NCBI GenBank assembly: GCA_034926605.1
Contig: JAYFQV010000010.1
Span: 1-32,000, forward strand
Direction of reading: 5' to 3'
DNA length: 32,000 nucleotides
DNA from: Victivallaceae bacterium
GTDB taxonomy: Bacteria > Verrucomicrobiota > Lentisphaeria > Victivallales > Victivallaceae
The first letter of the stretch is position 1, and every line of letters begins with the position of its first letter. The translations under genes were made by a program, and so were the position numbers. The notes beneath the pieces were generated by a model. It ran no database searches. It was not told the DNA's origin and saw only the letters and a program-made list of their open reading frames with translations. Below are positions 18,145 to 18,978 of this stretch, in pieces.

Positions 18145-18978
18145 TCAGGCCTTTTCTCTCATCAACGCATTTATTTCGCCGGGACCGCATATCGACTTGT
18201 TTTGCGTCAGCTCCCGGAATGTCCCGGTGTCGCGGATGTTTTTAAGGTTGGCCCGCAGCGCGGCGATCACCGTCATGATTGCGATTGCGGGCAGGCTGAC
18301 CCGGGCCACTCCGCGGTCCAGCAGTTCCCGGATTGAAAAACTGCCGATATTGTAAGTCAGTCCGGCGGCGATGCTGACCGGGCCGGGGATTTCCCTTACC
18401 AGCGTTTCAACCTCATCAAGAGAGGCGACCTTGGTGACGAACACCATGTCAGCGCCGGCTTCCAGAAACATGTTTCCCCGGATGATGCTTTCCTTCAGTC
18501 CATTCCGTCGGTCTTCTCCGGCCATAAGCGCGTCGGTTCTGGCGTTGATGACCAGTTCCGGATTTCCGGCTTCGGCGGCGGCGGCGCGGGCGGAGCGGAT
18601 ATTGGCCGCCGCGCTTTCACGGTCGCTCACTCTGACTTCGGGGATATGGTGAATCCGGTCTTCGAGGTTGATTCCGGCCGCTCCGGCGCGGACGTAGGCG
18701 GCAACGGTTCCGGCGATGTCGCCGAATCCCTCCTCGCCGTCCGCCATCACCGGGACCGCAACGCTTTGAACTATTGCCCGGGTGACCGAGAGATTCCGGT
18801 CCGGCCCGAGGTCGTCCTCGTCAAGCCCGCCGGCGGCAATCGCCATGCTGTAGCCGGAACACTGTACCGCGGAGAATCCGGCCTGCTCGATCAGCATCGC
18901 CGACAACGGGTCGTAGGCATCCGGCATCACCAGCCCGCCGGAGCGGATCATGGACTTCAATTTCTGCGAACAGTTCAT
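18145..18978 (-). CDS. Isocitrate lyase / PEP mutase (ICL/PEPM) superfamily enzyme, specificity unknown
   Basis: ATG at 18978 has GGAGGAAAATAACC upstream. MPDAYDPLSAMLIEQAGF...ADGEEGFG...GINLEDR...VINARTDAL are the superfamily hallmarks. The ICL/MICL KRCGH loop is absent (EDRIHHIPEVRV instead). The track start at 19161 overlaps arsR and is rejected. Confidence 0.85.
   Translation of the reverse strand: MNCSQKLKSMIRSGGLVMPDAYDPLSAMLIEQAGFSAVQCSGYSMAIAAGGLDEDDLGPDRNLSVTRAIVQSVAVPVMADGEEGFGDIAGTVAAYVRAGAAGINLEDRIHHIPEVRVSDRESAAANIRSARAAAAEAGNPELVINARTDALMAGEDRRNGLKESIIRGNMFLEAGADMVFVTKVASLDEVETLVREIPGPVSIAAGLTYNIGSFSIRELLDRGVARVSLPAIAIMTVIAALRANLKNIRDTGTFRELTQNKSICGPGEINALMREKA

Follow-up and report, generated by a model that had tools for sequence, protein, structure and literature searches.

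Arsenic resistance (ars) operons have repeatedly taken in enzymes of ordinary metabolic folds, among them ArsN, ArsI, ArsH and the glyceraldehyde-3-phosphate dehydrogenase (GAPDH) that accompanies ArsJ. The functions of ArsI, ArsH, ArsN and ArsJ/GAPDH are now known, but these genes came to notice as passengers whose presence in such operons had no explanation. This report concerns a gene at positions 18145-18978 (minus strand) of a 32,000-nucleotide stretch of the Victivallaceae bacterium contig JAYFQV010000010.1, a stretch referred to below as the window. The gene, here called gene X, encodes a predicted enzyme of the phosphoenolpyruvate (PEP) mutase/isocitrate lyase (PEPM/ICL) fold. The recruited ars enzymes resemble gene X in being frequent fourth or fifth genes of arsR-arsC-acr3 operons that were found by context before biochemistry; gene X differs from them in its fold, in having no dedicated transporter partner and in having no known substrate.

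The window also belongs with the arsR-hgcAB loci. The association of hgcAB with arsR, acr3, arsC and arsM is already published (McDaniel 2020; Zhang 2023; Peterson 2025, especially for Kiritimatiellae). As in the loci of P. mercurii ND132 and of Kiritimatiellae from Lake Mendota, an ArsR-type regulator lies upstream in the operon with hgcAB, and acr3 and arsC are nearby; in ND132, hgcAB is immediately preceded by arsR2, with no further ars genes co-located. Unlike the window, the ND132 and Lake Mendota loci are not described with a PEPM-fold gene between arsR and hgcA, and McDaniel 2020, Zhang 2023 and Peterson 2025 make no mention of a mutase or lyase gene at arsR-hgcAB loci. No paper that connects proteins of the PEPM fold with ars or hgc loci was found in a search of the full-text literature. 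Thus, while the arsR-hgcAB-ars connection is known, a recurrent PEPM-fold ars gene is undescribed in the literature searched, and the claim of an earlier sequence-only reading of the window, that gene X stands outside the described ars and hgc modules, holds for that literature.

A third comparison is with the bisenarsan pathway of Streptomyces (BsnM/BsnN), an arsenic-induced cluster that, like the proposal made below, joins ars genes to PEP/pyruvate-type chemistry on a C-As bond, and for which arsonopyruvate is a proposed natural intermediate (PMC12159101). Its mutase BsnN belongs to the phosphoglycerate-mutase family and is not homologous to the PEPM fold (PMC12159101), and the 5-enolpyruvylshikimate-3-phosphate synthase and decarboxylase partners of the pathway are absent from the window.

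Linkage of the gene X family to ars operons

Gene X belongs to a family that is, with high confidence, an accessory component of ars operons, typically in the order arsR-arsC-(acr3)-X-arsM. Its members are common in metagenomes from sediments, peat and lakes, with named relatives in Verrucomicrobiota, Pirellulaceae, Armatimonadota and Lentisphaeria, and they make up a separate subfamily, defined by its context, within a known fold. A metagenome scan with the family alignment yielded 80 loci whose products are 44-82% identical to that of gene X; their flanks were searched by tblastn with the ars and hgc proteins of the window, and 49 loci had at least 3 kb of flank. The control loci, 76 remote members of the superfamily at 27-40% identity whose flanks were longer, were drawn from a genome scan with the gene X protein alone, in which the single protein picked generic peptide patterns and only remote superfamily members were among the matches listed. 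An arsC or acr3 gene lay within 5 kb in 23 of the 49 family loci and in 0 of the 76 remote loci (Fisher p 8e-12), while arsR was found in 20 of the 49 and arsP within 5 kb in 0 of 49. Dereplicating the family at 90% identity left 40 loci, of which 22 carried arsC, acr3, arsM, arsA or arsP within 5 kb, against none of the 76 remote loci. The linkage is recurrent, on the same strand, present in divergent lineages and above background.

Individual contexts agree with these counts. Homologues at 81% (L001), 71% (L003) and 64% (L004) identity carry the cluster arsR-X-hgcA-hgcB-methyltransferase-arsC-acr3, with a variant in L004 in which arsC lies between gene X and hgcA. Members at 52-55% identity lie in ars operons, some with and some without hgcAB; a 54% identical member is found in arsR-arsP-hgcA-hgcB-DsbD-X-acr3...arsC, and a 55% identical member is divergent from arsR-arsC-acr3. 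Three further members, picked by available sequence length alone, all lie in ars operons (arsR-Trx3-methyltransferase-x-X-arsC-acr3; arsR-arsC-acr3...arsR-X; arsR-arsC-X-arsM-...-arsD-arsA-acr3). A Lentisphaeria member at 60% identity lies elsewhere, among pyrroloquinoline quinone (PQQ)-repeat genes. Of the contexts labelled with Pfam, eight of nine are ars operons. In a neighbour-joining tree (no support values), ars-linked members fall in several subclades and other subclades are without ars linkage; a single hgcAB-linked clade is made up of the window, L001, L003 and L004.

When the open reading frames (ORFs) of the flanks were clustered, the commonest partner of gene X proved to be the arsenite methyltransferase gene arsM, in 18 loci. 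In nine dereplicated loci it is the immediate same-strand neighbour of gene X, often with overlapping stop and start codons. The ArsM partners pass NF008823 (282 and 318 bits against 263), and an ArsA partner passes TIGR04291 (762 bits against 650). Other recurrent neighbours are Acr3, ArsC, ArsA, pairs of DsbD-like and Cys-rich thioredoxin-like proteins, and P-type ATPases. The co-occurrence with ars and hgc genes elsewhere on which the sequence-only reading depended is therefore non-random, as both the metagenome loci and the contexts looked up attest, and the pattern expected of a housekeeping orthologue at random loci was not seen, the ars context being kept across 44-82% identity.

Fold and active site of the gene X protein

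18145-18978, minus strand: gene X, a predicted short-loop 'QCSG' PEPM/ICL-fold enzyme of 277 aa (PF13714, AlphaFold2, Foldseek, dN/dS)

The gene X protein matches Pfam PF13714 PEP_mutase over residues 12-248 (E 1.1e-56; 192.5 bits, gathering score 31.5). An AlphaFold2 model built on an alignment of 115 homologues has a mean pLDDT of 95.2 and a pTM of 0.91, and with this model Foldseek gives a template-modelling (TM) score of 0.86 to E. coli PrpB and of 0.79-0.87 across PrpB, CPEP mutase, PEPM, DFA0005 and 4mg4. Model and structural matches agree on the (beta/alpha)8 barrel of the PEP mutase/isocitrate lyase superfamily. The superfamily membership claimed from the sequence alone is thus borne out, and the motifs on which it had been based are all present: PDAYDPLSA, ADGEEGFG, INLEDR and NARTDAL, with RIHHIPEVRV right after the ED.

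Gene X is no chance ORF, because a public collection holds a protein identical to its product, homologues at 64-81% identity stand in the same gene order, and the ratio of nonsynonymous to synonymous substitution (dN/dS) is 0.14-0.22 against the three closest homologues (those of the window clade). The gene is under purifying selection. A 338-aa ORF at 18145-19161 is the frame of gene X extended upstream into arsR. Antisense ORFs of 168-353 aa on the plus strand, at 14588-15502, 15692-16753, 17428-18021 and 18646-19152, run over acr3, the methyltransferase, hgcA and gene X, and are taken as artefacts of a G+C content of 58-64% and not as genes.

Residues were mapped by alignment on E. coli PrpB, and family invariants were taken from 115 sequences. 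Tyr43 of PrpB corresponds to Q39 of gene X, S45/G46 to S41/G42, D85 to D80, D87 to E82, E115/D116 to E106/D107, R158 to R147 and E188 to T182; D58 aligns to D56, with an invariant E54 two residues off that is counted here among the Mg2+ carboxylates. Roles are assigned to the PrpB residues (Mg2+ carboxylates, oxyanion hole, Cys123, the general base Glu188) from published structures. D80, E82, E106/D107, S41-G42 and R147 are invariant in the 115 sequences, so that the gene X protein shares with PrpB and isocitrate lyase the fold, the Mg2+ carboxylates, the Ser-Gly oxyanion hole and the arginine (Arg158/R147). It differs from them in its context, which is not prp, and in two catalytic elements. 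The stretch that holds KRCGH with Cys123 aligns to a gap, and the gating loop with a catalytic Cys that marks isocitrate and 2-methylisocitrate lyases, DMML, OAH and PDP is absent; the position of the general-base Glu188 is held by T182 (in FVT), which is nearly invariant in the family. The sequence-only reading described the protein as lacking the KRCGH loop. Cys-Gly-His is indeed gone, but the loop itself is still there, shortened by about 4-6 residues and with its arginine (R116) kept. In the wider family the loop after ED reads QVLGQPGPKR(V/I)(V/I), and in the window clade RIHHIPEVRV, again with R116.

Invariant across the 115 sequences are also Q39-C40-S41-G42, N104, N145 and R226-x-S228-x-P230, and C264 is nearly so. 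The clade is marked by an invariant VQCSG, by ADGE(D/E)GFG, NxRTDAL and ARVSLP, by a C-terminal Cys that is nearly invariant and, after N(L/I)ED, by a loop that falls 4-6 residues short of the lyase length. The invariant C40 of VQCSG stands beside the oxyanion-hole Ser-Gly, where PrpB has Leu, and C264 lies about 13 residues before the C-terminus; in the PEPM/ICL fold the C-terminal segment usually reaches the active site of the neighbouring subunit.

The protein reaches no curated equivalog cut-off in NCBIfam, a library without a model for the gene X family. Its scores are 103.8 bits against a cut-off of 354.4 for prpB (TIGR02317), 81.7 against 353 for NF008455, 77.5 against 374.4 for phosphonopyruvate hydrolase (TIGR02321), 70.3 against 420 for CPEP mutase, 58.2 against 319.55 for PEP mutase (TIGR02320) and 19.9 against 275.9 for TIGR01346. 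The contention that gene X is neither an ordinary methylisocitrate lyase nor a PEP mutase is upheld by these scores and by the loss of residues equivalent to Cys123 and Glu188. PEP mutase and phosphonopyruvate hydrolase, the latter third-best in both the PDB and NCBIfam, share with gene X the fold and the enolate/metal core. The lid signature of PEP mutases known from the phosphonate genome-mining literature, EDKx5NS, is replaced in gene X by EDRIHHIPEV and in the wider family by EDQVLGQPGPKR, and alignment to 2dua shows that the loop also differs from the EDKTFPKDTS type of phosphonopyruvate hydrolase. PA4872 (3b8i) is no close relative, at 26.1 bits, E 5.4e-5 and rank 26 of 29 PDB matches.

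The best PDB sequence matches are instead 2qiw (C. glutamicum NCgl1015), 2ze3 (Deinococcus ficus DFA0005) and Burkholderia cenocepacia 4mg4 and 4lsb, with E values of 1e-27 to 3e-19; the top three phmmer matches, 2qiw, 2ze3 and 4mg4 (E 1e-27, 4e-27 and 9e-21), align at 31-33% identity with no loop gap. Like gene X, all four are TIM barrels with a short loop after N-x-ED and no Cys-Gly-His (26-33% identity in structural alignment), and gene X joins 2qiw, 2ze3 and 4mg4 in a short-loop PEPM/ICL group by its short, Cys-free post-ED loop and by best mutual similarity. Unlike gene X, the solved short-loop proteins, at about 30% identity, have no VQCSG, reading TIGSH, GTTSA or ATGSW at that stretch. 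They have no known ars linkage and are listed as function-unknown, so no reaction can be transferred from them. By sequence, then, the gene X protein is a superfamily member outside the lyase, PEP-mutase, phosphonopyruvate hydrolase and PA4872 families.

Organization and regulation of the operon

From position 22204 down to 14405 every gene of the window lies on the minus strand. An upstream sub-operon, arsR(b)-arsP-Thioredoxin_3 fusion-DsbD_2, is followed by a 99-nt gap and then by the main operon, arsR(a)-gene X-hgcA-hgcB-class I S-adenosylmethionine (SAM) methyltransferase-arsC-acr3. In the order of transcription the features are:

21923-22204, minus strand: arsR(b), first gene of the upstream ars sub-operon (19458-22204; Pfam matches)
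20907-21875, minus strand: arsP
20138-20890, minus strand: Thioredoxin_3 fusion
19458-20141, minus strand: DsbD_2
19359-19457, minus strand: putative intergenic promoter/operator region, TTGAAA-16-TACATT, then ATTTCGTCATATGGCGAATTGTAGGAG before the arsR ATG
18981-19358, minus strand: arsR(a), ArsR/SmtB repressor (HTH_5 E 5e-15; NF033788 89.6 bits against 55)
17053-18141, minus strand: hgcA, corrinoid protein with cap-helix NVWCAAGK (NF040863 396.6 bits against 275)
16779-17048, minus strand: hgcB, 2x[4Fe-4S] ferredoxin (NF040864 104.7 bits against 99)
15866-16741, minus strand: class I SAM-dependent methyltransferase (Methyltransf_11 E 4e-19; NF008823 49 bits against 263; NF043040 38.5 against 180)
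15439-15861, minus strand: arsC, thioredoxin-coupled arsenate reductase of low-molecular-weight protein tyrosine phosphatase type (LMWPc; TIGR02691 153 bits, under the cut-off of 174; CTGNSCRS and CX6C motifs)
14405-15442, minus strand: acr3, arsenite efflux permease (TIGR00832 385 bits against 283)

The junctions of the main operon are tight: a gap of 2 nt between arsR(a) and gene X, 3 nt between gene X and hgcA, 4 nt between hgcA and hgcB, 37 nt between hgcB and the methyltransferase and 4 nt between the methyltransferase and arsC, and an ATGA overlap of arsC with acr3. The ORF of arsC runs to 15933, and its likely start is Met25 at 15861. What the sequence-only reading said of the surroundings of gene X is confirmed in detail. 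The ribosome-binding site lies inside the 3' end of arsR, which closes with TGT GGA GGA AAA TAA before CC and ATG, so that GGAGG falls in the last codons; the stop lies 3 nt before hgcA (TGA at 18147-18145, TCA, then the hgcA ATG at 18141); and gene X fits closely between arsR and an authentic hgcA, as judged from the junction sequences and NF040863.

Since TGA, TCA and ATG stand in one frame (18139-18147), selenocysteine (Sec) read-through from gene X into hgcA was considered. It was dismissed as coincidence because no Cys precedes the TGA, L001 has an ATGA overlap and L003 a 24-nt spacing. Sec-containing (CU-motif) N-terminal extensions of HgcA are reported in Haft's preprint. The HgcA N-termini of the window clade carry pairs or runs of Cys (DCAKSGC, GCAKNGC, VCCCGG). 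The methyltransferase downstream of hgcB is kept in L001, L003 and L004 and may be a dedicated partner of HgcAB; an identity as ArsM is ruled out by its NF008823 score, and it is also below the cut-offs of CpaM and the DVU_1556 family.

The repressor encoded by arsR(a) carries ELCVCRI, a motif like an As(III) site, which stands where R773-type ArsR has its As(III)-binding CVC. Upstream of the gene, a pattern search finds a sigma-70-like promoter match at 19410-19383 (TTGAAA-16-TACATT). The 5' region is conserved in L001 (6211-6324), L003 (7509-7627), L004 (7500-7629) and L089 (150-285), with TTGAAA and TACATT separated by 16 or 17 nt, and the ATTTCGTCATATGGCGAATTGTAGGAG block is kept in all four although the remaining spacer has diverged. 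Within that block lies TCAT-N7-ATTG, which resembles the ArsR operator consensus, TCAT-N7-TTTG. The conserved 5' region, with its ATTTCGTCATATGGCGAATTG element, is a candidate ArsR operator. A perfect 8-bp palindrome, TTTCAAAT-CGGA-ATTTGAAA, lies over the -35 in the window only.

Together, the CVC motif of ArsR, the conserved promoter/operator and the packing of the genes suggest a polycistronic operon that would be derepressed by arsenite. ArsR, with its CVC-type As(III) site, would control the promoter, and arsenite would switch the operon on; arsR, gene X and hgcA would be translationally coupled, by the 2-nt gap with the Shine-Dalgarno sequence inside arsR and then by the 3-nt gap.

The upstream sub-operon is syntenic in L001 and L003. 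Its Thioredoxin_3 fusion is 250 aa long, with the Thioredoxin_3 domain at the N-terminus and a lengthy extension at the C-terminus. Pairs of Cys-rich thioredoxin-like and DsbD-like proteins recur, as here, in many family loci. Both the window (25081-26451, plus strand) and its closest relative L001 (1214-2494, minus strand) have an enolase gene at a distance of a few kb from the ars island; enolase makes PEP, and the proximity is probably chromosomal synteny. The flanking genes, for a 1309-aa protein with a central Amidase_2 domain (9993-13922, minus strand), a heparinase II/III-like protein (22403-24253, plus strand) and a GH127 beta-L-arabinofuranosidase-like protein (29100-31082, minus strand), are consistent with a polysaccharide-degrading anaerobe of PVC (Planctomycetes-Verrucomicrobia-Chlamydiae) type.

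Proposed function

Taking these observations together, we read the product of gene X as an accessory enzyme of the ars module that would be induced by As(III) and act through a Mg2+-stabilised enolate of an alpha-oxo acid, perhaps on a C-As compound, and put the probability of this reading as a whole at about 0.5. The parts of the reading differ in strength. Enolate-type chemistry is suggested by the fold and is probable: the enzyme would bind an alpha-oxo (or alpha-hydroxy) acid via Mg2+ and form a pyruvate-type enolate in an active site more open than that of the lyases. A bond at C3 would then be broken heterolytically, or formed, in the manner of a hydrolase or decarboxylase; such solvent-accessible heterolysis is likelier than a shielded mutase or C-C lyase reaction because the lyase acid/base pair is gone and the lid is truncated. 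The preferred substrate class would be an arsenic-bearing pyruvate analogue such as 3-arsonopyruvate, cleavage of which would free arsenate for ArsC and Acr3. C-As chemistry on a PEPM fold is conceivable, because PEP mutase is reported to act on 3-arsonopyruvate/arsenoenolpyruvate (Chawla 1995, cited in PMC4943196); as the substrate of gene X, a C-As compound is a guess from that analogy and on balance unlikely. A stronger version is quite unlikely, namely that the protein is an oxygen-independent C-As bond enzyme working in series with a methylating module (ArsM in most lineages, here HgcAB and the SAM methyltransferase). The gene X enzyme would either split a compound of the arsonopyruvate type or join an As(III) or methyl-As(III) species to an alpha-oxo acid.

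Several observations weigh against this reading. About 45% of the family loci with adequate flanks have no ars gene nearby, and several subclades are wholly unlinked. The control loci come from genomes and the family loci from metagenomes, that is, from different collections. No transporter, transaminase or dehydrogenase that might supply an arsonopyruvate-like substrate is conserved in the clustered neighbourhoods. The post-ED loop is poorly conserved inside the hgcA-linked clade, and promoter and operator are recognized at the level of sequence patterns. Finally, no alignment column was found that separates ars-linked from unlinked members, which argues for a generic reaction over an arsenic-specific one.

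The last point leads to the main rival, in which gene X would be a generic alpha-oxo-acid enzyme, catalysing oxaloacetate decarboxylation or another enolate step, that was recruited to relieve arsenic-induced metabolic stress and does not touch arsenic. This is a tentative but real possibility. The absence of specificity-determining residues between linked and unlinked members is what it would predict, and the unlinked loci, which have no conserved non-ars partner gene, lie in heterogeneous contexts; moreover, the closest solved relative, DFA0005 (2ze3), was crystallised with alpha-ketoglutarate according to the title of the structure, and an open, short loop suits a decarboxylase or a hydrolase. 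Set against it are the very consistent insertion of the gene between arsC and arsM/acr3, often with overlapping stop and start codons, an arrangement typical of dedicated ars genes, and the weak similarity (26 bits, E 5e-5) to PA4872, the one characterised loop-variant decarboxylase.

Relation to hgcA

The sequence-only reading had cast HgcA as the obligate partner of gene X, which could supply or process a carbon substrate or an organometal intermediate for the corrinoid methyltransferase. The two genes are coupled neighbours in the window and in L001, lie close together in L003 and share an operon in L004, where arsC parts them, and hgcAB or hgcB occurs in the operon of two more family members. 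Such proximity goes no further than a single small clade and two other arrangements. In most of the family, ars genes are nearby and hgcAB is not, and the partners of the family at large are arsR, arsC, acr3 and arsM (22 of 40 loci against 0 of 76).

Seen from hgcA, the linkage is not conserved either. The nearest relatives of the window HgcA outside its clade are 66%, 63% and 58% identical; the three with the longest flanking sequence were looked up, and in all three (L173, L174 and L175) hgcA lies in an ars operon, directly after arsC, acr3 or an arsD region, in the orders arsR...arsR-arsP-arsC-hgcA-hgcB, arsC-acr3-hgcA-hgcB and arsA-arsD-x-hgcA-hgcB-arsM...acr3...arsP. No PF13714 gene was found at these three loci, nor is linkage to gene X a conserved feature of related hgcA lineages, and in ND132 the gene directly upstream of hgcAB is arsR2. 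All the HgcA contexts looked up (the window, L001, L003, L004, L173, L174 and L175) are ars operons. The arsM gene after hgcB in L175 encodes a protein with a CMD/AhpD domain. The window HgcA also matches a Victivallaceae HgcA at 67% identity. In a further context (P0022), hgcA is followed by a 335-aa ferredoxin-domain protein where hgcB usually measures about 90-110 aa, and the call on a sister contig is 223 aa with no Pfam match; the protein may be a fused or extended HgcB, or reflect a difference in assembly or gene calling.

Because the family is mostly ars- and not hgc-linked, and because the nearest HgcA relatives do without gene X, gene X and hgcAB are two independent optional passengers of ars operons whose adjacency here is secondary. 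A dedicated HgcA partnership is thus largely refuted by distribution and is very unlikely, and obligate pairing was not upheld. The other suggestion of the sequence-only reading, that the enzyme processes an organo-metalloid intermediate, may yet hold. What the window clade does display is an equivalence of position. The hgcA-hgcB-methyltransferase cassette (window 15866-18141, minus strand; L001 7531-9792; L003 8853-11142; L004 9261-11499) holds the slot downstream of gene X that in many other members is held by arsM, and from this position we infer that the cassette may substitute functionally for arsM.

Remaining alternatives

The same slot invites a further proposal, that gene X and ArsM (or HgcAB and its methyltransferase) together make a C2 or C3 organoarsenical, in the manner of the arsS-arsM (arsenosugar) and arsL-arsM (arsinothricin) pairs. 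The frequency of arsM as immediate neighbour, the cassette at the same position in the window clade, and the non-SAM route of Streptomyces to C-As bonds via arsenoenolpyruvate and arsonopyruvate (PMC4943196, PMC12159101) all speak for such a pairing. It is nonetheless very doubtful indeed: the Streptomyces mutase BsnN has another fold, no decarboxylase or reductase partner is conserved in the clustered neighbourhoods, the truncated lid speaks against a solvent-shielded mutase reaction, and many members have arsC or acr3 yet no arsM. An ordinary methylisocitrate lyase or oxaloacetate decarboxylase orthologue, here by chance, would fit the best NCBIfam score (prpB) and the best structural match (PrpB) but has a negligible chance of being right, being refuted by score (104 bits against 354), by the missing catalytic residues and by a context that is kept across 44-82% identity and has no prpC or prpD nearby.

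Significance

Widespread, tightly inserted by arsC, arsM or acr3 and without an assigned reaction, the gene X family is a promising candidate for a step not yet described in the arsenic biochemistry of anaerobes. For mercury research, the loci indicate that hgcAB in this HgcA lineage is one exchangeable cassette of an ars operon predicted to sense As(III), in the position of arsM. Were the C-As bond version of the proposal true, it would mean a new organoarsenical pathway in anaerobes, and HgcAB in these bacteria would natively act on arsenic and not on mercury. The operon of the window is thus a concrete place in which to ask whether HgcAB has an arsenic-related native function.

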